From Escherichia phage vB_EcoM_G2494, in the sequence record MK327935.1: 64,000 nucleotides of DNA; one strand, written 5' to 3'. Below are positions 4,975 through 62,758 of the stretch, piece after piece. The translations under genes and the position numbers were made by a program. The notes under the pieces are model-generated. The model saw nothing but the letters and a program-made list of their open reading frames with translations, did no database searches and had not been told where the DNA came from. Position 1 is the first letter of the stretch, and every line of letters starts with the position of its first letter.

Positions 4975-5027
4975 AACAGTATTAATATCGTGCACATGTA
5001 AACTAAAATTATGTTAATAACATATAC

Positions 5028-5054
5028 AAAAAAAGCCGCCCCGAAGGACGGCTA
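5028..5054 (-). terminator. rho-independent terminator (minus strand)
   Basis: A-run then agccgcc-ccgaagg-acggct hairpin on plus strand, i.e. hairpin plus U-run on minus strand after gene 5062-5499. Confidence 0.55.
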
Positions 5055-5061
5055 ATGTTAA

Positions 5062-5499
5062 TTATTTGTTGATAACGATCTGATTTCGGCGAATGGTAAC
5101 ATTACTCTTAGAGATGATCAGATCATCCGGCACTACGTTAGTTTTGTATGGTTGGAAGCGAACAAGCATCTGATTGCGTTTAGACCCTTCCTTAATCTTG
5201 ATTTCCATCTGGATATTGTTGCCTACGTGAGCAACCGCAATTTCACCTTTATTCTCATAGACCCACTTGCTGGTAACGTCTCCAGCAAAAGCCTTAATAA
5301 CTTGCAATGCTTCGTCGTATGCGGTAGAGCTGTGAACTTTCAGAAGGCCAGCCGTAGCAAGACGGGAGCAGGTGATCGCCGGAGATTGCCAAACATCAAC
5401 ATTAATTTGCTCAATCAGAGTAACACCGCCCTGATCAACTGCTTTGAATGCTTCGAACATTGCCTTTTTCATTGCTACGTGGGTTTTACGGAATTTCAT
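5062..5499 (-). CDS. hypothetical protein (145 aa)
   Basis: ATG with AGAGGTG SD; no recognisable motif. Confidence 0.6.
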   Translation of the reverse strand: MKFRKTHVAMKKAMFEAFKAVDQGGVTLIEQINVDVWQSPAITCSRLATAGLLKVHSSTAYDEALQVIKAFAGDVTSKWVYENKGEIAVAHVGNNIQMEIKIKEGSKRNQMLVRFQPYKTNVVPDDLIISKSNVTIRRNQIVINK

Positions 5500-5545
5500 A
5501 ATTAGTCACCTCTATTGATTAGTTATTCAGAATATTAATTACAAA

Positions 5546-5821
5546 TCAGGACATTGCCCGTTTGAATGCGTCCATTATAACAGTGTTATTTGGCTTGTCA
5601 ACACGTTTTTGAACTTTATTTTTAAATTTTTTGTTGATGTGGTGTTTACGATAAACAACCTTTTCACGGTTGGCGTAAGCCTCGCGTGCATCTTTTACCA
5701 TCAACCATGCCTTAGCCGCATCTTGTCCGCTGATCCCGCCAATCTTTTTAGCAATATCAACAAAATTAAGACCGTGGTCTTCTCGTAGCATGTAAACCAT
5801 TAACGCTGTTTTCTTGTCCAT
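5546..5821 (-). CDS. hypothetical protein, possible helix-turn-helix (91 aa from internal ATG)
   Basis: ATG at 5821 overlaps the TGA of upstream ORF (ATGA-type coupling); ORF-track start at 5929 lacks an SD; start uncertain. Confidence 0.4.
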   Translation of the reverse strand: MDKKTALMVYMLREDHGLNFVDIAKKIGGISGQDAAKAWLMVKDAREAYANREKVVYRKHHINKKFKNKVQKRVDKPNNTVIMDAFKRAMS

Positions 5822-12089: not shown

Positions 12090-12860
12090 ATGAATATTAT
12101 CCGAATAAAACTACCGGAAGGTGTGCAGAGATTTAAACCATTCACGGTAAAAGATTATAGAGATTTCCTTCTGGTGTCAACTGAAATTAAGATGAATCCA
12201 GAAGAAGAACAAACGATTCTGGATGAGCTATTAGAAGAAATATATCCAGAAGTAGATCCGGCATTTCGTGAATATATTTTCCTGAATGTCTTTACTAGTT
12301 CAATTGGTAAAACAAAGATACCGCTTTGTTTTACTTGCCCGACTTGCAACAAAGAAAGAAAAATGTTGCTTAACTTACAGGTTGAAGCACTAAAACCAAT
12401 CGTTCTAGAGGCCGCAGGGCTTAAAATAACTTTCCGGTATGTTAAACCATCAACCGACTATGCAAAAACGTTTCTGGATGCGATAGAGCGTGTATCTGAT
12501 GGTGTTAATGATTATCTATGGACTGAATTACCGGAAGAAGTTAGAGAACAGGTTATAGATTCAATCTCATTTGCTGAATTTGAAGAAGTTGTTAAGCAGA
12601 TGCACACAATCAAGATCGAACAAAAGATATCTTGTTGTGAAAGTCATGACCTGAAATACATAGGTCTTCTTCCATTATTCAAATTGTTGTTGAATCCAGA
12701 TGAGTTATTCATCTTTTATCGAATAAACCATCTATTGGCAAAATCAAATTATTCTATCAGTGATCTTATGGATATGTTACCGATTGAGAGAAACATTGCA
12801 CTGACACTGGTCGAGAAAGACGTAAAAGAGGCAAATAATGCAAAGAACGGGGTTTCCTAA
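12090..12860 (+). CDS. 51: baseplate hub assembly protein gp51
   Basis: Synteny and size; divergent transcription from 25/26 as in T4. Confidence 0.75.
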   Translation: MNIIRIKLPEGVQRFKPFTVKDYRDFLLVSTEIKMNPEEEQTILDELLEEIYPEVDPAFREYIFLNVFTSSIGKTKIPLCFTCPTCNKERKMLLNLQVEALKPIVLEAAGLKITFRYVKPSTDYAKTFLDAIERVSDGVNDYLWTELPEEVREQVIDSISFAEFEEVVKQMHTIKIEQKISCCESHDLKYIGLLPLFKLLLNPDELFIFYRINHLLAKSNYSISDLMDMLPIERNIALTLVEKDVKEANNAKNGVS

Positions 12861-13947
12861 TGTCTCAATAAAACTTTATCAGGATTATGAGGCATTTCTA
12901 AATCATCGCTTTATAGAATTGGGTGCTACCTTTGTTACAATGACTCTGCGTGATTCGATTCGTGGGGTGAACGAAGGATTGTTGCAATTCTATGATAATA
13001 AGGCGATGCATACAAAATTAAATGGACGAGAGATCATTCAGATTTCGCTATCCACTGCTAATACAGATGAAGTGTTTAACCGAATCTATGGGATCTCTCA
13101 TAGTAATGTAACAATTGACCAAAAATCCGACAACATTTTAACATTCCAGTTAAAGAGCTATCACGAAACACTAAACCTTAAATTTTCTCGCTCATTGACA
13201 AATAACGCTGTTAATAACGTAACTAGCATGATTGATGCCATCTATAAGGAAGTTCCTTTATGGAAACCTACTATAAAGGGTGATAACGTTGTTATTCCTC
13301 GTTGTCCGTGGGTTAGTACCATAAATGACTATATGGATTTTGTGAGGGCATACGGGCAAAGCGTAGAAACAGAGTCTTTCGTGTATTGCTGGGAAGATTT
13401 TGATGGTATAACGATCGCTGGACACGATACAATATTAAAAAATGAGCCAATACCAGCTATAATCTGTGAGCCTAGACTCATGGGGCAATTTATTGATATG
13501 TCGCCTAATCTGATGGTTTTTAATTTCGAGTGGCAGACTAAGAGCAATGCTAAAGTTAAAAATTCATTTAGCAATGTGACATACACAACTATTGATTTTG
13601 TTACTAAGCAGTATAATAAAATTATTGTTGGTAATGGAGATAATATTGCACACTTTGCTCATGGTGGCGCTTATGGCGATTTAACTTATAAGAATGCGTT
13701 TTTGGAAGGTTCTAAACTTGCCACAATAGAACAATATGATTCATATGCTACCGCCGTGTGTCACGGTAATTTCTCGTTGCGCCCCGGTATGGTTATTCGA
13801 TTCTTTGATGAGAAGCAACAAGCACGCAATGATTTTATTGTTGACGAAGTGGTGCATGAAATTAGCCGAGAGCAATCATTAACTCACCTGTATATGATCG
13901 GTAACAGCGAAGAATTACAGGAAGTCAAATTTGAAGGTAAGATATAA
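12838..13947 (+). CDS. 27: baseplate hub subunit gp27
   Basis: N-terminal and central similarity to T4 gp27 (PNVSIKL, RNEGLLQFYD). Confidence 0.88.
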   Translation: MQRTGFPNVSIKLYQDYEAFLNHRFIELGATFVTMTLRDSIRGVNEGLLQFYDNKAMHTKLNGREIIQISLSTANTDEVFNRIYGISHSNVTIDQKSDNILTFQLKSYHETLNLKFSRSLTNNAVNNVTSMIDAIYKEVPLWKPTIKGDNVVIPRCPWVSTINDYMDFVRAYGQSVETESFVYCWEDFDGITIAGHDTILKNEPIPAIICEPRLMGQFIDMSPNLMVFNFEWQTKSNAKVKNSFSNVTYTTIDFVTKQYNKIIVGNGDNIAHFAHGGAYGDLTYKNAFLEGSKLATIEQYDSYATAVCHGNFSLRPGMVIRFFDEKQQARNDFIVDEVVHEISREQSLTHLYMIGNSEELQEVKFEGKI

Positions 13948-14465
13948 TGACAGAAACTAAACCTATGCTAAAATTTGTTGTTCCTGTAAAAAAATTAGAG
14001 ATAAACGGGAAACATATCAAGATCCCAAAAATGGGGATTAAGCAACATCGATTATTAAAAGATGTTCGTAGCTGTGATGAAACATTAAAGATTCTTCTTG
14101 ATTCAATCTGTCCTGGGTTAAACGCTGCCGAGTCTGAATTGGTTATGCTTAACCTTTGTGCGTTTAATGGCAAGTGTCTGGAAGAAAAAGATGGTCTTAA
14201 GCTGTCTGATGTGTATATTTGTACAGAGACTGAATTTACTTTAAATGGTAAAGTCTTTAAATTTAAAAATCCAGTGTATACTTCTGACCCCATTATCGAT
14301 GACGCTGATTTCTTGAGTCATCATTATCACGATCCTAGCGTAGACTTCCATGATTTCCCCGCTTTTATTATGGATTGGGCTACAGGATTAAGAAAAACTA
14401 TTGCACTGGATACACCGGAAGGTACTATCTATGGTGGAATTAACATATTGGATCGCCTATCATGA
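13947..14465 (+). CDS. 28: baseplate hub distal subunit gp28
   Basis: Synteny, size about 172 aa, overlapping stop/start with neighbours. Confidence 0.75.
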   Translation: MTETKPMLKFVVPVKKLEINGKHIKIPKMGIKQHRLLKDVRSCDETLKILLDSICPGLNAAESELVMLNLCAFNGKCLEEKDGLKLSDVYICTETEFTLNGKVFKFKNPVYTSDPIIDDADFLSHHYHDPSVDFHDFPAFIMDWATGLRKTIALDTPEGTIYGGINILDRLS

Positions 14466-16195
14466 ATAACGCATTAACATCATTTCGCGGGATGCGCAAG
14501 GAAGCGGAAGAAAACCCGATTGATAAACTTAACAAATTAGATAAACTTGATTCTATTGATAATTTGCAAGCTGCTACCGAATTGGTGGCAGAGACAGTAG
14601 AACAAAAATCTAATGAAGTTGTTGGTGCGGTCGAGGATAACACCGCAGCCAATGAATTGACGGCAGAAAATACACAATCTACCGCTGGCAATACCCAAAA
14701 AACTTATGAAGAATTGCAAAAACTCAATAATTTCTCTTCTCAGATGAATGAGAAATTACGTGGTTTTGGTGTTATGATGGAACGTAGATTTGGTGTTGTC
14801 AGTAAAATGGCTAGCGGTATTGGTGCGATTGAAGAAGCATTGAAAAAACCGGAACAACCGCAAACAATGCCATCACCTCAGCCAGTTTTGCCTACTGTAC
14901 CGGAACAGCCTAACAATGACAACTATCAAGGTCTTCCAAAGAAAAAACCAGATGCTGATGACCGAAAGAAAAAGAACGTCACAGATAAGCGTAATGCTGA
15001 TTCTATGGAAAATCTTCTTAAAGTTGTTCGTGGAGGATTTAAAGAAACCATAGGTATCTCTAATAAGGTCTTAGGGATGTTATTTAAGATCACCTTGACC
15101 GCTATGGCAGAAGCCGCAAAATGGGGTGCCATTTTGATGGGTATTGTTTTTGTCATTGATACCCTGATGGTTCATTTCAGATATTGGAGCGATTTATTCG
15201 AGACAAAATTCAGTGAATTTATGGATAAAGCCGGAGAATGGGCTGGACCAATTAGTGATATTCTAACAACTATTCGTCAAGTTCGAGATTATTGGTCTAA
15301 AGGCGAATATGGAGAGTTAATTAAATCTCTTGTTATGGGTATTGGTGATGCATTCTATAAAACCTTTATCCAACTTGATCGAATTATCACTACTGGTATT
15401 GCTAAAATTCTTCGCATGATCCCTGGTATGGGTGATTATGCCGATAAGTTAGAATATGGTGCTTTAAAATCTGCTGTCGCTCAAGGCTATACGCCAAATG
15501 AAAGAGAACTCGAATTAATGGATAAGGTCGAGTCTGAACACGAAGAGGACAAATACGGGGAGCGTACTGGTTGGGCCGGAAAAGCCCGTGATATTGGTGA
15601 GGCTATCGGTGACTCCATTAAAGATAAAGTTAATGAAGGACTTGTTAGTCTGGGATGGAGAGATCAAAAGGATGTTGACGCAGAGAAGCGACAAGAAGAA
15701 TTAAAGCGCGGGGAATATGAGTCTGTTTCTGCTGAACAACGATCTGCTAGTCGTAAACTTAGAATTAAAAGTGAGGGCGCGATCAATAATATTAATGAAG
15801 TTATGGAGAACTTGAGCGGTGACTATGACAAAGAAAGAATGGGAGAGTTGAAAAGGGATATTGATGTTTACCGTGAGAAAGTTCAAGATCCTACATTAGT
15901 TGAAAGTGATCGTTCTCAGTTAGAGCGTCTTATTGAAAAATTTGATGAGATGTATGCTGATAAGACTAAGGGTGTTGTGCAAACACAGCCGGTTCCTGCA
16001 ACTGAAACGGAAACAGCAAAACAAGCGGAGCGTACTGAACAAATGCAGAAACAAGCTGCAATCCAGCAACAAACGACAAATCAGACCTCAAACGTAAATA
16101 ATACACAAATTGTAACAAACAATAGAACTATTAAACAGGGTGCACCAACAACTAGAATTGATGCCCCCGGTACAATTAATATGGGGAACTTTTAA
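14462..16195 (+). CDS. 29: baseplate hub / tail-length determinator gp29
   Basis: 577 aa, synteny, coiled/extended composition. Confidence 0.78.
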   Translation: MNNALTSFRGMRKEAEENPIDKLNKLDKLDSIDNLQAATELVAETVEQKSNEVVGAVEDNTAANELTAENTQSTAGNTQKTYEELQKLNNFSSQMNEKLRGFGVMMERRFGVVSKMASGIGAIEEALKKPEQPQTMPSPQPVLPTVPEQPNNDNYQGLPKKKPDADDRKKKNVTDKRNADSMENLLKVVRGGFKETIGISNKVLGMLFKITLTAMAEAAKWGAILMGIVFVIDTLMVHFRYWSDLFETKFSEFMDKAGEWAGPISDILTTIRQVRDYWSKGEYGELIKSLVMGIGDAFYKTFIQLDRIITTGIAKILRMIPGMGDYADKLEYGALKSAVAQGYTPNERELELMDKVESEHEEDKYGERTGWAGKARDIGEAIGDSIKDKVNEGLVSLGWRDQKDVDAEKRQEELKRGEYESVSAEQRSASRKLRIKSEGAINNINEVMENLSGDYDKERMGELKRDIDVYREKVQDPTLVESDRSQLERLIEKFDEMYADKTKGVVQTQPVPATETETAKQAERTEQMQKQAAIQQQTTNQTSNVNNTQIVTNNRTIKQGAPTTRIDAPGTINMGNF

Positions 16196-17253
16196 TGAAA
16201 ATTAGTGTTATCAATGATGCCGTTGATAGCTTTAAAGCGGGGGTTAAAACCTCCGCTGGTTTTACCTCAAAAAATAAAGGGAAAACATTAACCGCTCAAT
16301 TCCCCGCTGAACGTGCTAGCGGTAATGATGCTAGCGGTTATTATATCAACGACTTATATAATAATGGTCTGTTATTCACTGCATACGATTACACATCTCG
16401 TACTACTGGATCGCTGCGTGATTTCAGGAAAAAGAAAAATGTTGCTAGCGGTTTTGGCGGTAGCGTTAATATCGCTGGTTTTGATTTAAATTTGGGTGGG
16501 AGAAATGCTGCATTTGACCGAGAGGCAATTGCTAATATTCTTCTTCCTCGTAGTCAATCTGACGTTGACGCTGCCAGCCATAAGTTTAATGATGTTGGTG
16601 AATCTGTTATTTCTCGCGGCGGTGGTACTTTAGGCGGTGCTCTTTCTAATATGGCATCTACTGCCGTTTTTGGTGGTATCGAAAGTATTACTGGTGGATA
16701 CCTTGCCGATCACGGTGAACAGATTTATAATACTGCGCGAAGCATGTATGCGGGTGCTGACGCACGAACGAAAAACTACGTATGGCATCTAACCCCACGT
16801 AGTATTGAAGACCTTCGCAATATTCTGATCATATACGAAACGTTTTTAGAATTGTCTTATGGTTCTAGTGGTATTTCCAGCACCGCAAAAGAATTAAAAG
16901 CGGAAGTTGATGCGTGGTATAAAAATACACTATTGAGAAAATCCACTCCAGAGGAAGCGAAGAGAAATGATACTCTGTTTGAAGGGATCACCGATTTTCT
17001 ATCAAACGTAATTACTGTATCTAACCCGACAATATGGATGATCTCTAACTTCGGCAAGCGTACATCGTTTGAAGGGCGTAGCGATGCATTTGGTCCCGCT
17101 CAGATCTCAAGTGTACGTCTGGACAAGTCGCCTGATGGTAAGTTTAATGGCCTTGCTATTTCTCCTAACTTGCCGAGTACCTTTGTTCTGGAAGTAACAT
17201 TTAGAGAGATCTTGACACTTTCCCGTGGTACTATATTTGGGAGTGCGGCATAA
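16195..17253 (+). CDS. 48: baseplate tail-tube cap gp48
   Basis: Synteny and size. Confidence 0.78.
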   Translation: MKISVINDAVDSFKAGVKTSAGFTSKNKGKTLTAQFPAERASGNDASGYYINDLYNNGLLFTAYDYTSRTTGSLRDFRKKKNVASGFGGSVNIAGFDLNLGGRNAAFDREAIANILLPRSQSDVDAASHKFNDVGESVISRGGGTLGGALSNMASTAVFGGIESITGGYLADHGEQIYNTARSMYAGADARTKNYVWHLTPRSIEDLRNILIIYETFLELSYGSSGISSTAKELKAEVDAWYKNTLLRKSTPEEAKRNDTLFEGITDFLSNVITVSNPTIWMISNFGKRTSFEGRSDAFGPAQISSVRLDKSPDGKFNGLAISPNLPSTFVLEVTFREILTLSRGTIFGSAA

Positions 17254-18185
17254 TGTTTGATTTAAATGACTTTAACGAACAAGCCGCTAACCTTGACTTT
17301 CAGCGATCTAACTTATTCAGCGTGGCATTTGCCACCACTCCAAGTAATAAGACACAAGCGATCCTAGAAAGTATGGGTGGTGCGGTATATGATATTATAC
17401 CAAATGCATTAAATGACTATTTCGGGATTACTCGTGGTGATTATACTGACGCATTAACAAATCTTGCTGTACAGGGTGTTAGGCGTGCTGTTGATTCATC
17501 TGGTGTCAAAAAGTATCTTTTAGGTGCAATGTCATCCCGCGTAGTTCAATCTCTTCTGGGGCAATTTGATGTTGGTACGTATGCTCTTGACTGGTTCAAT
17601 ATGGCATATAAGACAAGCGGTCTTCTGGTGTATGCTGTTAAGGTTCCAGAAAACAGATTGAATTATGAAATGGACCGCAACCACAATGCGCCAAACATTC
17701 GAATTACCGGACGTGATTTTGATCCGCTTGTATTGAGCTTTAGAATGGACTCTAGCGCATCAAACTATAGAGCAATGCAGGATTGGGTTAACTCAGTAGA
17801 AGACCCCGTTACAGGGCTTCGTGCGCTTCCTGTTGACGTTGAAGCAGATATTCAGGTTAACTTACATAACCGAATGGGAGTTCCTCACACGATCATGATG
17901 TTTAATGGTTGTGTTCCTGTTGGTGTGAGTGCACCGGAATTAACCTATGAAAATAACAACGAAATTACAACATTCGATGTTACTTTCGCATATCGTTCTA
18001 TGCAAACTGGTGCTGTAGGAGAGCAAGCCGCGCGAGAATGGATTGAGGATAAGGCAATAAACGCAATAACAAACACTTTCGGCAATAATTTACTTGATAG
18101 TGGGTTATCTGCTGCTGGTAATGCTTTATCGCGTCTAAATGGCGTTGGTGGGCGTGTGGTGAATACTGTCACTAACTGGTTCTGA
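17253..18185 (+). CDS. 54: baseplate tail-tube initiator gp54
   Basis: Synteny and size. Confidence 0.78.
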   Translation: MFDLNDFNEQAANLDFQRSNLFSVAFATTPSNKTQAILESMGGAVYDIIPNALNDYFGITRGDYTDALTNLAVQGVRRAVDSSGVKKYLLGAMSSRVVQSLLGQFDVGTYALDWFNMAYKTSGLLVYAVKVPENRLNYEMDRNHNAPNIRITGRDFDPLVLSFRMDSSASNYRAMQDWVNSVEDPVTGLRALPVDVEADIQVNLHNRMGVPHTIMMFNGCVPVGVSAPELTYENNNEITTFDVTFAYRSMQTGAVGEQAAREWIEDKAINAITNTFGNNLLDSGLSAAGNALSRLNGVGGRVVNTVTNWF

Positions 18186-18194
18186 TAAGCGAAA

Positions 18195-18220
18195 GGCGGG
18201 GATTATCCCCCGCCTTTTTA
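18195..18220. terminator. bidirectional rho-independent terminator
   Basis: ggcgggg-attatc-ccccgcc hairpin followed by TTTTT; convergent genes end on both sides. Confidence 0.7.
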
Positions 18221-18703
18221 TTTTGCTAAATCATTGCAATATTTTAGTGCCTTAGTTTGAAATTCTGCGCTGTTAAGTTCTTCATAACGGTCATAATCAC
18301 CGTTTAATGCTGCCTTTCTTGCTTCTTGCTCTATCTGCATGTCAGACATGATAATACAGCGATCCCGTGCTTTCATCTTCTCAAGTTGTATAGACTCTTC
18401 TTTCTGCTTGCGCAATTCTTCTTGACGCTTCTTTTCTTCTTGTGCTTTCTCTTCCCGCGCTTCTTTGATTGCATCCTTGAACATCTGCGTTTGTGGTGCT
18501 AAACCAACTTTAACGCGATCTACGTCTCGACGTTCCATTTTAGAAATAAAGCATGATTCGATCTTATCATCACTTGCATATGTTGCTTTACATTCACGAA
18601 GCAAGAAAACCGGATCTGATTTAGCATTCATCATAGCTTCCATGTTAGCACAACCAGTAAGCATGAATACAGCCGCAAGACCAATTAGTTTAATCATTTT
18701 CAT
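18218..18703 (-). CDS. predicted lipoprotein with coiled-coil region (161 aa)
   Basis: Signal peptide with lipobox LTGC (MKMIKLIGLAAVFMLTGC); GAGGTG SD. Confidence 0.6.
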   Translation of the reverse strand: MKMIKLIGLAAVFMLTGCANMEAMMNAKSDPVFLLRECKATYASDDKIESCFISKMERRDVDRVKVGLAPQTQMFKDAIKEAREEKAQEEKKRQEELRKQKEESIQLEKMKARDRCIIMSDMQIEQEARKAALNGDYDRYEELNSAEFQTKALKYCNDLAK

Positions 18704-19524
18704 TTAGTCACCTCACCGAAAATTGTAAATTGTCTACGATTCTCATCGCCGAAAGATTCTACTACGTCGTTTACCTTGACGCAAGTCCCGCGCGGTAAAA
18801 TTACTTCACATTCGCAAGGGTTCCATGCAATGGACCCAACAACAAAACCTTTATGATCTTTTACATCAATCACCCATGATACATTACAAGAATGTTGCAT
18901 CTTTCCGGTCATTGATTCATATCGATTCTCACAATAAAGGCTAGTGCTGTTTGAAAGCCATCCTCCAAAGATGATCGGTGTCATGCTAGTAGATACAAAG
19001 TTTTTAAAGGTAAATTCCTTATCTTCAATAATACGCTCTATTGTCTGAATGTCAAGATGTTGACCGCGATAAAGAGTACCGTTTAACTTTTCGGTTTTAT
19101 CCATGACACAATCCATCAAATCAACAATCTCTGATATCTCATCGGTCATGTCTTCTTCCCCTAAGAGAGCACCATTTACCCATTCGTATTGTTCAGACAC
19201 ATAATCACAGATTGCATTATATTCTGCTGGGGTTATGTTGTTATGTTTGTAATGTTTGAATACATTATCTCCAAAGTCTTCGGAGTGTACTTCATACATC
19301 ACATTAATGATTTTCTTTACAAATCCATAATCTTGTGTCTCGCGCTCAAGGAAGCGGATAACCTTCACATAATCATCAAAGTTAATCTGATCGCTGATCA
19401 TTTCAGTGATCATGTAACCATTAATACCATCAATGTCATATGTTTCGATGTAATTATCCATACGTTCCATCATTGATTCGCGTGATTCTTCCGAAAGACG
19501 AAAATCCTGTAATTTCTTGAACAT
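18700..19524 (-). CDS. ADP-ribosyltransferase-like protein (Alt/Mod family paralog, 274 aa)
   Basis: R (LYRGQ), STS (FVSTSMT) and ExE (CECEVILPRG) motifs in the order seen in the Alt C-terminal domain. Confidence 0.6.
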   Translation of the reverse strand: MFKKLQDFRLSEESRESMMERMDNYIETYDIDGINGYMITEMISDQINFDDYVKVIRFLERETQDYGFVKKIINVMYEVHSEDFGDNVFKHYKHNNITPAEYNAICDYVSEQYEWVNGALLGEEDMTDEISEIVDLMDCVMDKTEKLNGTLYRGQHLDIQTIERIIEDKEFTFKNFVSTSMTPIIFGGWLSNSTSLYCENRYESMTGKMQHSCNVSWVIDVKDHKGFVVGSIAWNPCECEVILPRGTCVKVNDVVESFGDENRRQFTIFGEVTK

Positions 19525-19556
19525 TTTAAACCTCCCATATAACAGAAAACGGGGCT

Positions 19557-19585
19557 AGTATAAAACTAGTCCCCGTTTGAGTCAA
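19557..19585 (-). promoter_or_regulatory. early promoter with stem-loop (TTGACT-17-TATACT)
   Basis: Minus strand GTTGACT ... TATACT; GGGGACTAGT/ACTAGCCCC inverted repeat spans the -10. Confidence 0.5.
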
Positions 19586-19602
19586 CCATTATTTCTTAAA
19601 AA

Positions 19603-21654
19603 TTACATTTTAAATTTATCTGGCATTGCGTCTACCGATACCAGATCAGCGATAAGCTGACGTAGAGTTGCCTTATCTGCTTTCTTACGTTCGGTTTTAG
19701 CTTCGGTAATAAATCTGGAGAAAGACAGGTCAGAAGCAGGTTTAACAACACCTTCACGGATGAATGCATCACCGTCCGCGATCATCTCACCAGATTCTTG
19801 TAATGCTGCCAGTTCATTTTTGTTCATAATATGTGCCTCAATGTAATAAGTTTCTTGTGAATCCGTCGATGCCGTAGCACGAGTTACCGTATCAAAGGAT
19901 AACACAACACCGCGAGGAAGTAAAATCTCGCATTCTTTGTAAGCAAATGCTTTGTTACCTACTGGCAACACAGGGATGTTTTCCGCGCCAGCAATGGAGA
20001 AAGCAACATTAGCGCCACCTTCACCGCGAGAGCCAGCCATAGAATCAACACCAGCAACGGCACTAGCCACGTTTGCATTCCAGCCGCCAAAAATGTTAGG
20101 TGCAAGGGAAGTGCTCACATAGTTTTTAAAGTAAAACGCTTTTTGCTTACGTGCAGTTTCCCACATTTGCGACCGGAAGTCCATACCACGATACAGAATA
20201 GTACCCGGATCAAGTTTAACGCCATAGTTGGAGAAGGCATTATCCAGTGCATCACACATCTTGACCAATTCTTCTGGATCTGCGATGCCTTCAAACTCTT
20301 CCAGCTTACGGTCGGTTAGGAAGTTGTTCATATTGATGTATGCTGCATCGGCATATTCGCTCAACACAAAACCTTCCGCGCCTGGCAGATCAAGATCAAT
20401 ATTTGCCATCATTTCACCCATGTTGCTAGCAATTGCTTCAAACATACCGGAAGCAACATTACGTAGGGCATCGGTTTTAATCTGGGTGATATGACTACGC
20501 AGCATTTCAGCTTTTACATCTGCTGGCATAGACTGGTCTACTCGATCCATTGCCAGGGCGGTGATCTTGTTTTCGAATACTTCCTCGCTCATGATTTCTT
20601 TTAAGCGTTTGATTGATGCTGCGATAACTTCCGCAGACAACGGATCATATTGATCCTGAACTTTTACCAGTTCGCTTACTGCGTATTTTGCATCGGCTTC
20701 GCTTTCAAAAATAGTACGCATGAAACCATAGCGAGTGATAATATCACTTGTCCATTCATTCAGAGAACGGGCGGTTGAACGTTCTAAGGCTTGACGATCA
20801 ATCAGAGTATTAAACTGTTTCTTAGGTTCGGCTTCGGTGATATCTTCTTCCGGTTTAAGATTAATTTTTTCTGGATGATTCACATAGTCGCTGTTATAGG
20901 TCGCTTGAGTTTTCAGCATTTCTTCTTTAGTCAAACGAGATTTAGCCGCTACGCGTTGTTCCGCTTCCGCGTTTCGTTCTTCTTCTGACACCAGACTAGC
21001 CGCATACGCCTCATCTTTAGTCAGAGATTCACCAGTAGCCTTAGATACCCAGCGATCACCTAAATCACTTTCTACTTTAGTGAACAAGGAATCATCAAGT
21101 TTAATCCCTTTAATCTTATCAATCGCCATACCGCGACGTTTGACAACAACTAAAGCGATCTTTTTGCTGGTCATTACTTCCTGCTGGAATACTTCAAACT
21201 TCGGTGTACGACGCACCAAACGCTCTATAACGCGCTTAACCAGTTCGGTCTTACCTTTCATGCGGGATACGTTAAAACGGAACATAACAGCGTCTAATTG
21301 CGCTTTACGGGCTGTTTCCATAACCACATCAAAAGCACTTGCCATAACTGCAATCGGGTTATCGCCTAGACCATTTTTAAGCTGTACAATACGACCGCTT
21401 TTGTTCATTTCGCACAGTACAACATGTGCGGTCTTGTCACCCATACGAATGATTTTAGGTGTTTTGTTGGTGAAGTTACAAAGACGGACAATCACATCTT
21501 TATCGCGTGTCTGTACTGCAAAAAGCTGTTTAGGATTCTGCTTAGGCTTTAAGCACTGTACCGGAGCAATACTGCCAAAGTTTTCTTCCTCTTCCGTCAA
21601 CAGCCATTTCTCGAAAGATTCAATCATTAGATCGTCGATTTCTAAGTTAAACAT
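19603..21654 (-). CDS. alt: Alt ADP-ribosyltransferase (packaged early-acting ART)
   Basis: 683 aa; C-terminal YRGMDFRS ... YVSTSLAP ... YKECEILLPRG R-S-ExE motifs; position between 54 and 30 as in T4. Confidence 0.8.
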   Translation of the reverse strand: MFNLEIDDLMIESFEKWLLTEEEENFGSIAPVQCLKPKQNPKQLFAVQTRDKDVIVRLCNFTNKTPKIIRMGDKTAHVVLCEMNKSGRIVQLKNGLGDNPIAVMASAFDVVMETARKAQLDAVMFRFNVSRMKGKTELVKRVIERLVRRTPKFEVFQQEVMTSKKIALVVVKRRGMAIDKIKGIKLDDSLFTKVESDLGDRWVSKATGESLTKDEAYAASLVSEEERNAEAEQRVAAKSRLTKEEMLKTQATYNSDYVNHPEKINLKPEEDITEAEPKKQFNTLIDRQALERSTARSLNEWTSDIITRYGFMRTIFESEADAKYAVSELVKVQDQYDPLSAEVIAASIKRLKEIMSEEVFENKITALAMDRVDQSMPADVKAEMLRSHITQIKTDALRNVASGMFEAIASNMGEMMANIDLDLPGAEGFVLSEYADAAYINMNNFLTDRKLEEFEGIADPEELVKMCDALDNAFSNYGVKLDPGTILYRGMDFRSQMWETARKQKAFYFKNYVSTSLAPNIFGGWNANVASAVAGVDSMAGSRGEGGANVAFSIAGAENIPVLPVGNKAFAYKECEILLPRGVVLSFDTVTRATASTDSQETYYIEAHIMNKNELAALQESGEMIADGDAFIREGVVKPASDLSFSRFITEAKTERKKADKATLRQLIADLVSVDAMPDKFKM

Positions 21655-21722
21655 TTTATATCCTCTAGTTGATAACCTATAAACCTATATTTATGAAAAC
21701 GGGGCTTAACGCCCCCTTTTTA

Positions 21723-21935
21723 TTATAATGCACCATCGAGCAATTGCTCTAAGGTGTATCCTGAATAGTCTTTTTCAATCAGGATATATTTTCCTACTCG
21801 TTTAATACAACCGCGCATTTCAACGTATTCTGCGTAGTTGATGGTACGAGTTGTTCCATCTTCCAGTAATGCAGTACCGATTTCGTTAATGCGGTCATAA
21901 GTTACGTCGGTAATGATGATTTCGATGTTAGCCAT
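21723..21935 (-). CDS. hypothetical protein (70 aa)
   Basis: ATG with AAGGAG SD downstream of promoter 21972-22000. Confidence 0.55.
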   Translation of the reverse strand: MANIEIIITDVTYDRINEIGTALLEDGTTRTINYAEYVEMRGCIKRVGKYILIEKDYSGYTLEQLLDGAL

Positions 21936-21971
21936 TTGATACTCCTTAGTAGTTCGTTTCTGTATGTGTGT

Positions 21972-22000
21972 ATTATGATATACACCCTCTGTTATGTCAA
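21972..22000 (-). promoter_or_regulatory. early sigma70-type promoter (TTGACA-17-CATAAT) with upstream A-tract
   Basis: Read on minus strand. Confidence 0.6.
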
Positions 22001-22006
22001 CAACTT

Positions 22007-22186
22007 TTAGAACATTTTTGAAATTAATTCTGCTTTGATTTCGCAGAGAACATCTAAAGATTTCTCGTCACCCGCTTTTGCTGCTTCTGCTTGCATTTTT
22101 GAAATGGCTTCAATCTCAGTGCAATTATAAGCCGCTTGAACTTTAGCGATTGCGAGGATTGCCGATTCGATGGTTAAGTGTTTTAT
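22007..22186 (-). CDS. hypothetical protein, ATA at expected start position (possible pseudogene or non-canonical start)
   Basis: 59-codon open frame placed exactly like neighbouring genes behind AGGAGAATCAAAC, but start codon is ATA. Confidence 0.3.
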   Translation of the reverse strand: MKHLTIESAILAIAKVQAAYNCTEIEAISKMQAEAAKAGDEKSLDVLCEIKAELISKMF

Positions 22187-22218
22187 GTTTGATTCTCCTT
22201 TCGTTTCGGTATGTGTGT

Positions 22219-22247
22219 ATTATAGGGGATCGATGATCCCCTGTCAA
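22219..22247 (-). promoter_or_regulatory. early promoter, consensus TTGACA-17-TATAAT with perfect palindromic spacer GGGGATCATCGATCCCC
   Basis: Read on minus strand; A-tract UP element upstream. Confidence 0.7.
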
Positions 22248-22255
22248 CAACTTTT

Positions 22256-22774
22256 TTAGTTATTTTTTAATTGCTCATCTTGCAATAGGGCAATCACATG
22301 CTGGCGATGTTCTTCCGATTGAGGCACACCGAAAAAGTTTGTTTTGTAGAAATACTCTAATCGGTCTTCTCGTGTGCTCTCTTCCATCATGATCGCGGGT
22401 AGTCCGAGATTTCGGAAACGTCGCTTTTCTGCTGGCGTAAAATCACTGTAATACATCATAGAATCATCATTACCAGCAATGCTAAACTCATCCTTCATGA
22501 AGGAGAATATTGCGTTTAAACGCTGTTTACCGTCCACGATTTCGATCTCATAGCGAGAGCCATCATCAATCTTAGCCATTGCGATAGCACCAACCGGAAA
22601 ATCATTAATCAGGTTTTCGATAAACATACGTTTGTTTTCGGTGTCCCATACTAAAGGACGCTGATAATCTGGGTTCATGTTGATATAGCCATCTTCTAAC
22701 CATGCATCATAAACAGAGATGACAAAGTTTTTAGTATTGGTATAGTAACGGCGTTTAGGCGTTAAACGGTTCAT
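22256..22774 (-). CDS. DUF262 / ParB-like domain protein (172 aa)
   Basis: DYQRPLVW and DGKQR motifs; ATG at 22774 with AGGAG SD, 1 nt after upstream stop (ORF-track start 22810 overlaps the upstream gene). Confidence 0.6.
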   Translation of the reverse strand: MNRLTPKRRYYTNTKNFVISVYDAWLEDGYINMNPDYQRPLVWDTENKRMFIENLINDFPVGAIAMAKIDDGSRYEIEIVDGKQRLNAIFSFMKDEFSIAGNDDSMMYYSDFTPAEKRRFRNLGLPAIMMEESTREDRLEYFYKTNFFGVPQSEEHRQHVIALLQDEQLKNN

Positions 22775-22775
22775 G

Positions 22776-23105
22776 TTATAGTCTCCTGAATGGATCATCA
22801 CGTAAATCAATATCTTTTAAGAACTCATCCCATGAATGGCGGATATTGTTCTTAATTCTCCAGATAAGAGCAGGGATTGAACGCTCTCCCATCTGGAAGT
22901 ATGGATCATATGATCCGTATGCCCAATATGCTACTACAATTCCACAATCAGCGCAATAGTATTCTATTTCACTTGCTGGCGACAAAAGTCCATCAATATG
23001 ATCGGTGATCTTGCTTTCGATGTTATGGCTATGACAATCAGGGCAACGGATGCAATGACCTTGTTTATCGTAATTTGATGTTAGTGAATACTTAAACAAT
23101 CTCAT
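22776..23105 (-). CDS. Cys-rich zinc-ribbon protein (109 aa)
   Basis: CIRCPDCHSH ... CADCG cysteine pairs. Confidence 0.55.
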   Translation of the reverse strand: MRLFKYSLTSNYDKQGHCIRCPDCHSHNIESKITDHIDGLLSPASEIEYYCADCGIVVAYWAYGSYDPYFQMGERSIPALIWRIKNNIRHSWDEFLKDIDLRDDPFRRL

Positions 23106-23821
23106 TATAGATCCTTATTTGCTTCAAATACTGCCTTTGCGAATCCTCGCGGGGTAAGTGACCTTATAGTCTTTGTTTTCGTTCCTTTCCCGCCTAGCTT
23201 AGAATGCTGTTTACTGTACCCTTTATTAATCTGCAACGGTTTCTTTTCTGGCATTATAAAGCCTTGTCCGGTCCATAAGCAAGTCTTTTTTGGGTACATA
23301 TCACGGGCGGCAATATACTCAGGAAACGTAGGATGCTTATCATCTTCCGGCAAATAACCGCCATATTCCCACGGATGGAACATATAATCAGGCTTACGCC
23401 ACATGCTAGAGATAACGCTTACAGGATTCTCTATCATGTAGGGAACTCCTAGCCATTCACCCAAATAAGCGGTTATTTTGGCTGCCCTTACATCATGAAC
23501 TTGAATCAATGGTCCTTGTTCTCGTTTCTTTCGTTCAAAGTGCGCAGCGCCACTAACAGCTAAATTGGTGCATGGTGGGAATGCAAAGATAATATCCGGT
23601 TTCCCCCATTCAAGGTCCATTGCTCTTTCTAGCCAGTTAAAATCAATCCATGTGTTTACATAGGTAATGTTTGGATGTTCAAATCTGGTATTATACTTTT
23701 TGTATGTTCCGTGGTCGCCATCGTCAGCATTAAAGCAGATCACCTTATGACCTGCTTTAGCCCATTCTAACCCCATTATCCCCGATCCGTCAAAGTTACA
23801 GAATATTAATTTTTGTTTCAT
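23105..23821 (-). CDS. compact cytosine-C5 methyltransferase-like protein (238 aa)
   Basis: FxGxG (res 10-14), acidic FNADD (res 30-34), PPC (res 82-84) and ENP (res 131-133) with spacing like C5-MTase motifs I, II, IV, VI; no obvious target-recognition domain. Confidence 0.5.
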   Translation of the reverse strand: MKQKLIFCNFDGSGIMGLEWAKAGHKVICFNADDGDHGTYKKYNTRFEHPNITYVNTWIDFNWLERAMDLEWGKPDIIFAFPPCTNLAVSGAAHFERKKREQGPLIQVHDVRAAKITAYLGEWLGVPYMIENPVSVISSMWRKPDYMFHPWEYGGYLPEDDKHPTFPEYIAARDMYPKKTCLWTGQGFIMPEKKPLQINKGYSKQHSKLGGKGTKTKTIRSLTPRGFAKAVFEANKDL

Positions 23822-26279: not shown

Positions 26280-26567
26280 TTAAAACAGTCCTTCCTGTAC
26301 ACCGTAGTAGAGTTCATCGCTGATAATTTCATTAATGCGACGGTGTGCATATTCCTGATTTGCGAAGTTGTCAGCAAGTTCTACTTTAGTTTCGCCGTCA
26401 TGAGTCCATTTAGTGATAACTTTACCATCTGCAAATTTGAAGTTGAACTCTTTAGCTACCGCATCGCGTACCAGACGTGCAAACTTATTGTTGCGGATTG
26501 CATTGTCGGTTTCGTGTTCAGCGTGAGCGAATTTGTTAACTTTCAGAGTGATAGTAATGTATGCCAT
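26280..26567 (-). CDS. hypothetical protein, KEFN-motif paralog 1 (95 aa)
   Basis: RLVRDAVAKEFNFK; paralog of 29845-30156. Confidence 0.5.
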   Translation of the reverse strand: MAYITITLKVNKFAHAEHETDNAIRNNKFARLVRDAVAKEFNFKFADGKVITKWTHDGETKVELADNFANQEYAHRRINEIISDELYYGVQEGLF

Positions 26568-26613
26568 AATTTGATTCTCCTAGTTAGAAAGTGTATCTCG
26601 TTTCGATGGGTGT

Positions 26614-26642
26614 ATTATGCTATACACCCGATCTTATGTCAA
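26614..26642 (-). promoter_or_regulatory. early promoter TTGACA-17-CATAAT
   Basis: Read on minus strand. Confidence 0.55.
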
Positions 26643-26648
26643 CACTTT

Positions 26649-26927
26649 TTATAAAATAATTTTTTGATATTTTTCTATGATGTTTGTGTAGGTCACATCA
26701 ACCGCGAGCACCGTTGCTTCGAATCCACCGTTTAGCCAATGGCTATGATCGTGATCGTTAAAGAAACCGAGGCCAGTGCGAAGACCTTCTTTATATTCGG
26801 CGCGTACATTCAGTTTGTCGTCGATAAACAGATAAAACCATGAATTTTTACTAGGATTGATGATACAACCTTTCAGATTAGGGAGAATATCACGACTAAG
26901 AATAAACTTATCACCTACTTTGAACAT
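26649..26927 (-). CDS. HxHxW-motif paralog family member B
   Basis: HDHSHW ... VLAVDV; ATG at 26927 with GAGGA SD (ORF-track start 26942 is GTG). Confidence 0.5.
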   Translation of the reverse strand: MFKVGDKFILSRDILPNLKGCIINPSKNSWFYLFIDDKLNVRAEYKEGLRTGLGFFNDHDHSHWLNGGFEATVLAVDVTYTNIIEKYQKIIL

Positions 26928-26931
26928 AATA

Positions 26932-35280: not shown

Positions 35281-36158
35281 TAAAAGTCTCCGTAGTTAAC
35301 CTGAAAACATTCTACACCAATTGAGCGGTACATGTCAACCACTTGATCACGGTCATCTACTGCCAACACAACATGATAACGCGGTGCAATTTCAGAGAAG
35401 AAAATCTCTTTCTTCACTTCATGATCAGGACGACGATCATTAGTTTCACGTTGAAAGTGATCGCTAGGTTCAATACCCTGTTCACGCAACCATTGCAGAG
35501 TATCTTCTTCGCAAACATCCTCACGCCCTGAGCATGTAATGATACGATAACCATTATCACGATACAGTTTAAGCATTTCGATCACTTGCGGACGCGGTTT
35601 ATCTTCTTTGACCTTTGTCCAGTCAAACGGATGACGACCGCCCTTATCCGCTAATGTTCCATCAATATCAAAGATCACTGCCTTCGGCAGCATGGTATTC
35701 GGTTTGTATACTTCTTGACCCATATATTCCTGCATCAGATAAAATTGGTTACGCAAATGAGAAAGTGGAATTGCTTTCTCGCCTCGATAGAAATTACGTT
35801 TCTTTAGTGTCTCAAATGATTCATTGAACACTTGTTCAGTATACACCGCGTTAAATTCTTTTGCAAGTTCTTTGTAGAATACACGATGTTTTTCTTTCAG
35901 GTTAGTATCAGAGATAATGATACTTAATCCGCGTGATAGAGTCTCACGAGCAATCATTCTCTGAATAGACTCTACCAGCTTTTCTTTTTCCTTAGTATAC
36001 TTGTATTTCAAATGTGAGTCAACACCAAACAACATAAGACGAAGATCATCACGATTCACATTACGATAATTACTAAACCGGTTACATGTTTCCATAGCCC
36101 ATGTAGTTTTACCAGACCTAGAACAACCAACGGTTAAAATCACTTCACATTTCGGCAT
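35280..36158 (-). CDS. pseT: polynucleotide 5'-kinase / 3'-phosphatase
   Basis: GCSRSGKTT P-loop, DIDGTL HAD motif, C-terminal similarity to T4 Pnk; ATG at 36158 with GGAG SD. Confidence 0.9.
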   Translation of the reverse strand: MPKCEVILTVGCSRSGKTTWAMETCNRFSNYRNVNRDDLRLMLFGVDSHLKYKYTKEKEKLVESIQRMIARETLSRGLSIIISDTNLKEKHRVFYKELAKEFNAVYTEQVFNESFETLKKRNFYRGEKAIPLSHLRNQFYLMQEYMGQEVYKPNTMLPKAVIFDIDGTLADKGGRHPFDWTKVKEDKPRPQVIEMLKLYRDNGYRIITCSGREDVCEEDTLQWLREQGIEPSDHFQRETNDRRPDHEVKKEIFFSEIAPRYHVVLAVDDRDQVVDMYRSIGVECFQVNYGDF

Positions 36159-36613
36159 TATTTCTCCTTCGGTTTGCACCGTTCCTCATTAAGTTCTTTT
36201 CGATAATAACACATGATCAACTTACTTTCAAGTGTATATCTCTTAATATCCGCAAGCCAGACTCTGAATTTTTGGGAGTCCTCCCACGACATAGAAACTC
36301 TAGGTTTACCGTCTATTGTATCCACTTTCAGGTCAATGTCAACTTTTTCTATTGGTGCTGGTAGTTGAGGATGTAATTTCGGTTCCTGTGAATACTGGTC
36401 CATTGTACACGAAGAAAGAGCAAATACAATAGGCACAGCGAAGACATGGATTATGGCGGTCTGAAAATTCTTATGTGCTTTCTTAAACATCCGGTGTATC
36501 ACGAAAATTGAAAACACCATCAGGATAATAATAATGCTTGCCCCTATCCCCAGATAATCAACCAGATTAAAATTGCTTATCTGCTCTTGCGTAGGCAATA
36601 TTTCTATGCTCAT
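36158..36613 (-). CDS. membrane/lipoprotein-like protein, putative o-spanin (start ambiguous)
   Basis: Strong AAAGGAGG SD at 36613; internal signal-peptide-like segment with lipobox LSSC after Met42; downstream of i-spanin. Confidence 0.4.
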   Translation of the reverse strand: MSIEILPTQEQISNFNLVDYLGIGASIIIILMVFSIFVIHRMFKKAHKNFQTAIIHVFAVPIVFALSSCTMDQYSQEPKLHPQLPAPIEKVDIDLKVDTIDGKPRVSMSWEDSQKFRVWLADIKRYTLESKLIMCYYRKELNEERCKPKEK

Positions 36614-36933
36614 TTAGTAGCCTCCTTTAATTCTTCGGTAAACTCCTTAAATGAATCATTAAGCTGTTTCTCTACCAACTTGGGTTTTTGTGCTACTACA
36701 TAGCCTCGTGTAGCGTCTTTCATTGCTTTGTTTTGTTCTTCTGCAAACTTAGTTCTTATTCCGTACATCTCCTTTTGTAGTGAGTCTACGACCTTCATCT
36801 TTTCATCGGTCTTTTTCTTATACTCTGTAAATTCCCGATTCAGTCGATCTACCTCCTTTTTATTTTCCCACCACATATTGCCACCTACCCCTAGCAACAC
36901 AGAGATGATAACAATGTATATCAGCTTTGACAT
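36610..36933 (-). CDS. i-spanin (N-terminal TM, periplasmic coiled-coil)
   Basis: MSKLIYIVIISVLLGVGG TM then charged coiled-coil; position as T4 pseT.3. Confidence 0.6.
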   Translation of the reverse strand: MSKLIYIVIISVLLGVGGNMWWENKKEVDRLNREFTEYKKKTDEKMKVVDSLQKEMYGIRTKFAEEQNKAMKDATRGYVVAQKPKLVEKQLNDSFKEFTEELKEATK

Positions 36934-36977
36934 ATTACCCCCAACGACAAAAGGCGGGGAACTAGCCCCGCTTATTA

Positions 36978-38147
36978 TTACCAATCAATCTTATCAGCCG
37001 GAATCAGTTTCTTATAATTCCGTAGATAGTAAGTTTTCATTGAATCCAGAATACGGTCATAATCAAGACCATCAAATGCAATCATCAGACACATGAAAAT
37101 ATATGCTTGTGCATCACCATGTTTACGTGATTCGATAGTCGCATTTGATGCATATGTCTTTCTGTCTTCTCCCGCGTGTGCGTTATAAAATTCTGTTGCT
37201 GTAGTGAAGGCATTGCGAAGAATAGACCTGAATGCTTCCTCGAATAACTCGATTCGTTCCAGTGCTTCCGGTTCGCCTTCATATGCAGCACGCAAATCAT
37301 CGGTTTCGCTTTCTACGACATAGTAGATCAGGTTATTAGGAAACATCGATGTGTTTTTAATGTTATGCACACCAATATACCATTCACTCTTCACTTTGAA
37401 CATTTGACCGTCTTTAGTGCGTGCAACAATTCCTTCGATACCTTCTGCGGTCCGAACTTCATCAAGAATATTGCTAAAATGCGCTGAATCAACCTGTAAC
37501 GCATTTACCAGATGAGGACGTAGGATTGCGTCAGCAAATAGCATTTGATGCGGTACGTACTCTCCTGTGACGTTATGGCGTACATTCAGAAGTGTTAGCG
37601 ACGGTTCAGAATATTCTACAACAATTCGGTTGCTGGGTGCTGTATATTCAAAGTTGAAAGTATAATCAGACCCAATATCAGCAATCTTAGCGCGTAGATC
37701 CGCATACTTCTCTGAATACAGAAGACCGTTTGCTCTCTCTGCCTGGCTTGAGTACAAGGCCGCTTTAGACTTCAACTGAACATAGCCGTTATCAATGTAG
37801 GTGCTTACTAGACTACCGTCCATTTTGTCCATGACCATTTCCACATCTTCCGGCTTAAAGCGAGCGCGATCATTCTCACCCAAATTAAAAAACTTCTCCA
37901 TAGGACGAGATGCGATGCGGACCGGACGACCTTTATCGTCAATTTCAAACATGATCCCGCGACACTCTAACGCATCTGGTTTATTCCACATTTCCGGTTT
38001 GCTCAAGTACAGATAGCTAAAAATGCGCATACGGGTTTGCATCGCCGTAATTTCATCTTTGTAATAGAACGTATCAGATCCGTCACACAGTGCCATCAGA
38101 TTTTTGAACAATGCTAAAACTTTTTTGTTGTTTTCTTTTGTTGACAT
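36978..38147 (-). CDS. rnlA: RNA ligase 1
   Basis: DKMDGSLV KxDG motif, IFSYLY, ALECRGIMFE match T4 Rnl1. Confidence 0.9.
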   Translation of the reverse strand: MSTKENNKKVLALFKNLMALCDGSDTFYYKDEITAMQTRMRIFSYLYLSKPEMWNKPDALECRGIMFEIDDKGRPVRIASRPMEKFFNLGENDRARFKPEDVEMVMDKMDGSLVSTYIDNGYVQLKSKAALYSSQAERANGLLYSEKYADLRAKIADIGSDYTFNFEYTAPSNRIVVEYSEPSLTLLNVRHNVTGEYVPHQMLFADAILRPHLVNALQVDSAHFSNILDEVRTAEGIEGIVARTKDGQMFKVKSEWYIGVHNIKNTSMFPNNLIYYVVESETDDLRAAYEGEPEALERIELFEEAFRSILRNAFTTATEFYNAHAGEDRKTYASNATIESRKHGDAQAYIFMCLMIAFDGLDYDRILDSMKTYYLRNYKKLIPADKIDW

Positions 38148-59014: not shown

Positions 59015-59016
59015 TT

Positions 59017-59040
59017 CTAGCGGGGATTATCCCCGCTTTT
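59017..59040 (+). terminator. hairpin terminator-like element after gene 36
   Basis: agcgggg-attat-ccccgct followed by TTTT. Confidence 0.5.
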
Positions 59041-59081
59041 CTAAATAATATTATTCTAACAACCGTTAAGGATTTTATAAA

Positions 59082-61862: not shown

Positions 61863-61898
61863 CAACAAGGGGGCGTTGCCCCCTTTGGAGTATAAATT

Positions 61899-62699: not shown

Positions 62700-62758
62700 C
62701 CGTTAAAAAAGAATTAAGGAAAAATCCCAGGGAAGGGAACTACTAAGGAGAAACGGCT

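Follow-up and report, generated by a model that had tools for sequence, protein, structure and literature searches.

The locus considered here raises the question of what a small lipoprotein, encoded between a baseplate gene and alt, does for a T4-type phage. It lies in a 64,000-nt stretch of DNA (hereafter the window; sequence record MK327935.1) from Escherichia phage vB_EcoM_G2494, a Krischvirus (RB49-like, T4-type) coliphage. The ORF is a genuine phage gene for a lipoprotein; it gives a full-length match to PHROG 16112 (E 2e-108), and its product is 98.8% identical to RB49p182, with two residue differences and the same genomic place. Every one of the 58 database phages with the locus has the gene. 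The initial annotation had located it between the baseplate and alt clusters and had read a lipoprotein signal with the lipobox LTGC at its N-terminus. Both readings stand: gp54 is found on one side and an Alt-like ADP-ribosyltransferase (ART) gene and alt on the other, the N-terminus follows a PROSITE PS51257-type rule, and Cys18 is invariant among homologues. Existing records call the protein "hypothetical protein" (RB49p182), "putative lipoprotein" (phage W115) or "Lipoprotein" (UniRef, KFS-EC). What was known already is thus limited to its existence as recorded in databases, PHROG 16112 being catalogued without function. In the published literature that we searched there was nothing on the lipoprotein itself, its allele cassette, its architecture or its independence from receptor-binding proteins. 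The features discussed below are collected in the table.

Table. Features of the lipoprotein locus (positions in the window)
Feature	Position	Strand	Basis
gp54, convergent baseplate gene	17253-18185	+	
Bidirectional intrinsic terminator, common to the convergent gp54 gene	18191-18218	both	11-bp stem, 7 GC pairs, T-runs on both sides
Lipoprotein precursor CDS, 161 aa, ATG start (RB49p182 orthologue; PHROG 16112)	18218-18703	-	ORF and translation
C-terminal helical module, codons 112-161, with C116 and C156	18221-18370	-	Invariant columns, 11 diverse members
Exchangeable mature-domain cassette, codons 20-156	18235-18646	-	Unalignable with E26 and G37-3
Charged Glu/Lys/Arg helix, spacer-like, variable length, codons 76-106	18386-18478	-	Within predicted helix 72-133, pLDDT >95
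Predicted signal peptide with lipobox, codons 1-18, MKMIKLIGLAAVFMLTGC	18650-18703	-	Follows PS51257-type rule
ART and alt genes, other neighbours of the lipoprotein gene	18700-21654	-	
274-aa Alt-like ART, upstream gene, same predicted transcription unit	18700-19524	-	PF03496 E 4e-16, PHROG 15144
Shine-Dalgarno GAGGTG, strong, 5 nt before the lipoprotein ATG	18709-18714	-	Read from sequence
PeSL-type (promoter-early stem-loop) cassette, alt-ART spacer	19525-19602	-	TTGACT-17-TATACT (19585-19557)
alt	19603-21654	-	

The lipoprotein family is tiny and confined to RB49-like (Krischvirus) coliphages. An exhaustive phmmer search of 1.84 billion representatives returned 7 clusters, from the phage family only, and single-sequence and profile searches of 5.8 billion proteins found no remote homologues outside it. 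The protein had no sequence match in Pfam, NCBIfam, PADLOC or the PDB sequences, and Foldseek found no fold match outside the family in the PDB (models of two alleles, A and B2) or in BFVD (allele A model). Within the family the gene order (ART, lipoprotein, convergent gp54) persists at 29–45% identity: the lipoprotein gene is convergent with gene 54 in five metagenomic relatives of this range, and an ART of 272–282 aa lies directly upstream in every relative whose contig reaches that far.

The putative signal peptide consists of an n-region MKMIK (with K2 and K5), an h-region LIGLAAVFM and a lipobox L-T-G-C that ends in Cys18. The PS51257-type rule calls for a positively charged n-region, an uncharged hydrophobic h-region and [LVI][ASTVI][GAS]-C with the Cys at 15–35. 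The window holds 534 ORF candidates that start with ATG and have 60 aa or more; of these the rule selected four, namely the lipoprotein ORF, the o-spanin and two evidently spurious ORFs; the expectation from shuffled sequences is ~0.4 matches. Homologues as distant as ~25% identity retain the signal peptide and Cys18, the lipid cysteine being invariant in every member. The +2 residue is Ala19 here, Thr or Ser in a few relatives and Asp in no family member, so that sorting to the outer membrane is expected. Lipidation at Cys18 and outer-membrane anchoring of the mature protein are predicted from these features.

We then considered how the gene may be expressed. Its ATG overlaps the ART stop codon (ATGA, 18700-18703). 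In most relatives, too, the start and the ART stop overlap or all but touch; in two of them (L009 and L010) the gap is 11 nt. As read from its sequence, the alt-ART spacer qualifies as a PeSL cassette, an element class described for RB49 and phi1 (PMC2839356): it is intergenic and contains sigma70-like -35 and -10 elements, a GGGG...CCCC stem-loop, a Shine-Dalgarno sequence and an ATG. The promoter is interleaved with the GGGG...CCCC stem-loop (stem aacggggactag/ctagccccgtt), which is followed by the Shine-Dalgarno sequence GGGAGG; in a promoter scan of the spacer the sigma70-like site scored 10/12, and the annotators of phage GEC-3S marked a promoter at the same site. The late promoter TATAAATA was not found near the lipoprotein gene on the minus strand and is present upstream of plus-strand late genes. 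At the other end of the gene, the terminator site is annotated on both strands in GEC-3S, and a terminator is also annotated at this position in G37-3 and G2248. The PeSL promoter, the ATGA overlap, the lack of a late promoter and the terminator together define ART and the lipoprotein gene as one predicted early transcription unit. The lipoprotein gene is probably transcribed early, together with ART, from the PeSL promoter; this timing is deduced from matches to promoter consensus sequences and from an element class that was characterised elsewhere in RB49 and phi1. The alt-ART PeSL stem-loop also resembles a terminator for alt.

The AlphaFold2 model of allele A, which is the allele of the window, is all-helical (pLDDT 89; helices 31–41, 45–65, 72–133, 137–143 and 146–159). 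The model of allele B2 shows the same order of helices at pLDDT 80, with the central helix broken at 100–104. Four cysteines of the mature protein, C38, C51, C116 and C156, are invariant across the family (11 diverse members aligned). The mature 143-aa protein is thus predicted to comprise a proximal hairpin with C38 and C51, a long helix with a charged spacer, and a distal module with C116 and C156. By their spacing, the cysteines may pair within each module, as disulfides C38–C51 and C116–C156, and so staple two hairpins. The C-terminal module (predicted helices 112–133, 137–143 and 146–159) is the best conserved part of the protein and carries the motifs G-[DN]-[YF], S-x-[EQ]-[FY] and K-x-x-K-x-C. 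Provided that the protein is monomeric and its 62-residue helix straight, the distal module could stand up to ~9 nm from the membrane.

The initial annotation had taken the Glu/Lys-rich stretch for a coiled coil, a description that its heptad statistics do not support. Codons 76–106 are 62–71% charged and 5–10% hydrophobic. Within residues 78–105 (64% charged), 25% of the best-register a/d positions are hydrophobic, as compared with 100% in Lpp, and along the charged helix a/d occupancy is 0.25–0.5 versus 1.0 for Lpp. Furthermore, the indels seen among close relatives (-5, -7, -15 and +11 aa) all fall within residues 81–101 (window 18400-18463), and changes of 5–15 residues are evidently tolerated. 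Judged from this composition and length variation, the stretch is a charged spacer-like (ER/K-type) helix and not a heptad coiled coil. The length variants of the charged helix are P0006, P0007, P0029 and P0033, and the +11 variant is a tandem duplication of EEESRKENKHQ.

The central observation concerns the mature domain, which in 8 of the 58 phages is only 27–29% identical while the signal peptide is unchanged or almost so. Three alleles can be distinguished: A (window, RB49), B1 (Whisky, JK32) and B2 (E26, G37-3, AV108). There are hence at least two diverged alleles besides A, and further metagenomic types exist. B1 and B2 have a similar C-terminal third, and all three alleles share the signal peptide with little or no change. 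(The lipobox of B2 is L-N-G-C, with an Asn at -2 that falls just outside the PROSITE pattern.) Comparing E26 and G37-3 with the window, the lipoprotein is 29% identical and ART, gp54, gp48, gp29 and gp27 are 98–100% identical. At the DNA level the flanks of the cassette (window 12222-18234 and 18647-23820) are ~98% identical to both phages, and the lone unalignable stretch between them implies that the mature domain is a discrete exchangeable cassette. What is new here, as read from these alignments, is that the mature domain, with alleles at most 30% identical, forms a discrete cassette behind a shared signal peptide. Each replacement preserves the reading frame and the full architecture. The PeSL class has been proposed as a mediator of modular shuffling (Arbiol et al. 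2010). The boundaries of the lipoprotein cassette lie inside the coding sequence, at the end of the signal peptide and in the last five codons, not at the PeSL. The B2 lipoprotein ORF of E26 (L020 6001-6513; MN655998.1 112060-112569) is intact and unannotated in the GenBank record.

We asked which other genes, if any, change together with the allele. Co-variation with the baseplate hub was suggested by Whisky, JK32 and AV108, in which B1, and B2 in the case of AV108, occur with diverged hubs; it was rejected when E26 and G37-3 were found to pair B2 with the hub of the window. ART is 97–100% identical throughout, whatever the lipoprotein allele. Co-variation with the adhesins gp37 and gp38 was likewise rejected, the same allele being found with unrelated adhesins and different alleles with similar ones: E26 and G37-3 have an identical B2 allele and gp37 proteins that are just 48% identical, and RB49, despite its nearly identical lipoprotein, has an unrelated gp37 tip and no Ox2-type gp38. 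Finally, a comparison of RB49 with E26 (one allele-B genome) over ~150 kb, with ~12 kb of E26 outside it, found no co-swapped partner gene; the lipoprotein cassette is the sole allele replacement in these ~150 kb. The other differences between the two phages are small ORFans and HNH or homing-endonuclease-like genes that one of them lacks, and indels in two genes (RB49 26366-26930, 117428-118000 and 139419-140858; E26 4975-5780 and 82977-83924). E26 has an extra 311-aa ORF between the neck genes 13 and 14.

The receptor-binding module of the window occupies 57546-62705 and comprises the C-terminal end of gp36, gp37 (59082-61862) and gp38 (61899-62699). This interval had no close (>=88%) DNA match in the RB49 or E26 sequence compared. 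Its gp38 is of the Ox2 type, 95% identical to gp38 of phage Ox2 and otherwise matching Tequatrovirus phages; among the best 60 gp38 records, G5211 alone also carries the lipoprotein locus. By these matches, a Krischvirus backbone has here received an imported adhesin module. In RB49 the gp38-like gene (RB49p079) lies at another locus, and its similarity covers only the N-terminal 110 residues, at 45%.

Comparison with an 82%-identical relative gave a dN/dS of 0.11, indicating that the lipoprotein gene is under purifying selection; fast evolution by positive selection is contradicted by the same value, which comes from one comparison. Within this pair dS is 0.29 at the 5' end and climbs to >1.2 at the 3' end, a gradient that marks the divergence as that of an older lineage joined by recombination inside the gene. 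As far as the sequences tell, the cassette polymorphism marks the protein as being under specificity-type selection, even if it is not an exclusion factor.

Our main reading, to which we assign a probability of roughly 0.4, is that the protein serves in envelope conversion or superinfection exclusion, working in the periplasm and independently of the receptor bound by the phage's own long tail fibres. The predicted outer-membrane lipoprotein would convert the envelope of the infected cell and, from the periplasmic side, hinder the entry of secondary phages. The blocked step or target would be independent of this phage's own long-tail-fibre receptor, and the three highly diverged mature-domain alleles, swapped behind the shared signal peptide, would give different target specificities. 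Exclusion is plausible because the protein is predicted to be sorted to the outer membrane, because a sigma70-type early PeSL promoter and no late promoter lies upstream, because allele-cassette polymorphism is typical of specificity determinants, and because no homologue of T4 imm or sp was detected by tblastn in the RB49 genome pieces (NC_005066.1) or, in the same search, in the window. For T4 Sp the best hit against the window and the RB49 pieces had E 0.065, lay inside gene 41 and is not credible. The tblastn miss for Imm and Sp does not prove that other exclusion genes are missing from Krischvirus genomes. In RB49 the slot between genes 61 and 41, which holds sp in T4, is taken by Dc1 and Dc2.

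FhuA is blocked on its periplasmic side by outer-membrane lipoproteins of phage origin, T5 Llp and the Cor proteins of T1 and phi80, with which the initial annotation had drawn an analogy. In its specific form the analogy would have the lipoprotein attach to the periplasmic face of the outer-membrane protein that serves the phage itself as receptor; re-adsorption would be blocked and the progeny shielded from debris. The likeness is that of a phage-encoded lipoprotein, predicted to be in the outer membrane and, as for T5 Llp, to have an early promoter, that is sequence-diverse between related phages; the allele diversity recalls the receptor-specific Llp variants. The analogy nevertheless fails in each respect that could be checked. 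Unlike Llp and Cor (~60 aa), the protein has 143 mature residues, is predicted to be all-helical and has no sequence or fold relation to them: a PHROG scan matched Cor (phrog_1119) at E 0.011 over residues 1–47, that is, the signal peptide, and gave no Llp match. Its gene is not adjacent to a receptor-binding gene, lying ~40 kb from gp37 and gp38, and the allele is uncoupled from the adhesin both between the window and RB49 and between E26 and G37-3. Since the allele varies independently of the tail-fibre adhesin, of the baseplate hub and of ART, and no second gene was swapped between RB49 and E26, a mask for the phage's own receptor is disfavoured, and we consider it most improbable. We are less dismissive of a target on the host side, doubtful as it seems to us. 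Here the distal module would bind a host periplasmic, peptidoglycan-associated or inner-membrane-anchored protein, such as a stress sensor, a cell-wall enzyme or an envelope-located defence, and keep the cell productive, and the alleles would match polymorphic or alternative host targets. The cassette polymorphism is equally compatible with a host target, and no phage gene is replaced alongside the cassette in RB49 versus E26. Predicted co-transcription with ART, a host-takeover enzyme, also fits such a modulator, as does the predicted architecture, some outer-membrane lipoproteins being known to reach across the periplasm with a spacer and a distal domain. However, our searches revealed no similarity to any known regulator or inhibitor (a Foldseek match to the lipoprotein QseG, at E 8.5, is not significant), and because the periplasm-facing parts of the E. 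coli envelope are presumably conserved in general, alleles at most 30% identical would be hard to explain by host polymorphism.

A role as an envelope stabiliser or lysis-timing accessory appears improbable. The protein would in this case tether the outer membrane to peptidoglycan through a C-terminal Lys, in the manner of Lpp, or, in a variant of the idea, be a factor in lysis inhibition or in resistance to lysis from without. It does resemble Lpp/OprI in being a predicted helical outer-membrane lipoprotein, dominated by one long helix of Lpp-like length, and in ending in Lys in most alleles (...DLAK, ...DLIK, ...QLLK), namely A, B2 and most metagenomic relatives; moreover, RB49 has rI, t and rII, and hence lysis inhibition exists. 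But Asn is the last residue in allele B1 (Whisky, JK32) and in the related P0040, the heptad or alanine-zipper pattern of Lpp/OprI is missing, and there are extra modules with paired cysteines. The Lpp/OprI family model NF040598 matched only residues 2–36 of allele P0038 (E 0.088), which is signal peptide, and a structural role gives no reason for cassette-type allele diversity. An accessory role in lysis is also at odds with the complete spanin pair present elsewhere (36158-36933), a separate location that agrees with the remark in the initial annotation that the lipoprotein gene is not placed like spanin genes. The o-spanin ORF (36158-36613) has 151 aa, with a lipobox LSSC after an internal Met (start 36490, MFKKAHKNF...), and the i-spanin (MSKLIYIV...) starts inside the ORF 36610-36984. 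Hardly credible, finally, is a dispensable ORFan without significant role that is kept by linkage at a recombination hotspot between the alt and baseplate blocks. The block boundary does show recurring recombination breakpoints, and the family is tiny and confined to one genus. Against this, none of the phages with the locus lacks the gene, the low dN/dS points to constraint, the signal peptide, the four cysteines and several motifs are invariant at ~25% identity, and allele replacement leaves both frame and architecture intact.

The periplasmic exclusion factor that we favour can also be set beside other phage proteins. T4 Spackle (Sp, gp61.3) is a periplasmic inhibitor of the gp5 tail lysozyme of a superinfecting phage. 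The Krischvirus lipoprotein is comparable in being a small, cysteine-containing, predicted early and periplasmic protein of a T4-type phage, and with no Sp homologue detected in RB49 the Spackle role has no known occupant there. It differs from Sp, which has an ordinary signal peptide without a lipobox and sits between genes 61 and 41; membership of the Spackle family was rejected, there being no detectable similarity to Sp. Ltp of Streptococcus phage TP-J34 is a lipoprotein that reportedly blocks DNA injection after adsorption. A post-adsorption action is the mode that we propose for the Krischvirus lipoprotein; TP-J34 differs in being temperate, in having a Gram-positive host and in the unrelated sequence of its protein. 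Like the o-spanins of the Rz1 and T4 PseT.2 type, the protein is a phage lipoprotein with cysteines, predicted to be in the outer membrane. Unlike them it belongs to an early-type unit, is much larger and is predicted to be helical. Identity as an o-spanin was rejected, since its neighbours are ART and gp54 and the locus holds no partner i-spanin gene.

A more far-reaching version of the exclusion reading is that the mature domain is the specificity cassette of a new T4-type exclusion factor, whose alleles define exclusion groups independent of receptor choice. We regard this as unlikely in its full form. The protein would be a "reach" protein: on an outer-membrane anchor it would carry a proximal hairpin, then a charged helix serving as a ruler, and at the distal end a recognition module. 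The exclusion groups (A, B1, B2 and the metagenomic types) would span co-circulating Krischvirus and other coliphages, and incoming phages might, for instance, be caught in the periplasm by their tail tip or DNA conduit. Collections for phage therapy of E. coli commonly include Krischvirus phages. An exclusion factor that is genus-wide, early and located in the envelope, with a specificity part traded between near-identical phages, would give a natural point of access to competition among the phages of a cocktail. With it, the task of Llp, Cor and Spackle would have been solved a second time, by a protein of unrelated structure.

Some further observations concern the neighbouring genes. Compared with Alt, the 274-aa ART comprises the C-terminal catalytic part, the N-terminal region being absent. 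At the ART position T4 has only alt.-1 and alt.-2, which are annotated as remnants of an alt duplication. T4 alt.-3, found at the same position as the lipoprotein gene, was rejected as its counterpart, being unrelated, without a signal peptide and non-secreted. Upstream of alt lies a gene for a 172-aa hypothetical product (RB49p187; L005 1928-2446) with a precomputed Pfam match to PF03235 (GmrSD_N / DUF262), and this gene is two genes away from a DNA methyltransferase gene (RB49p189 in RB49).
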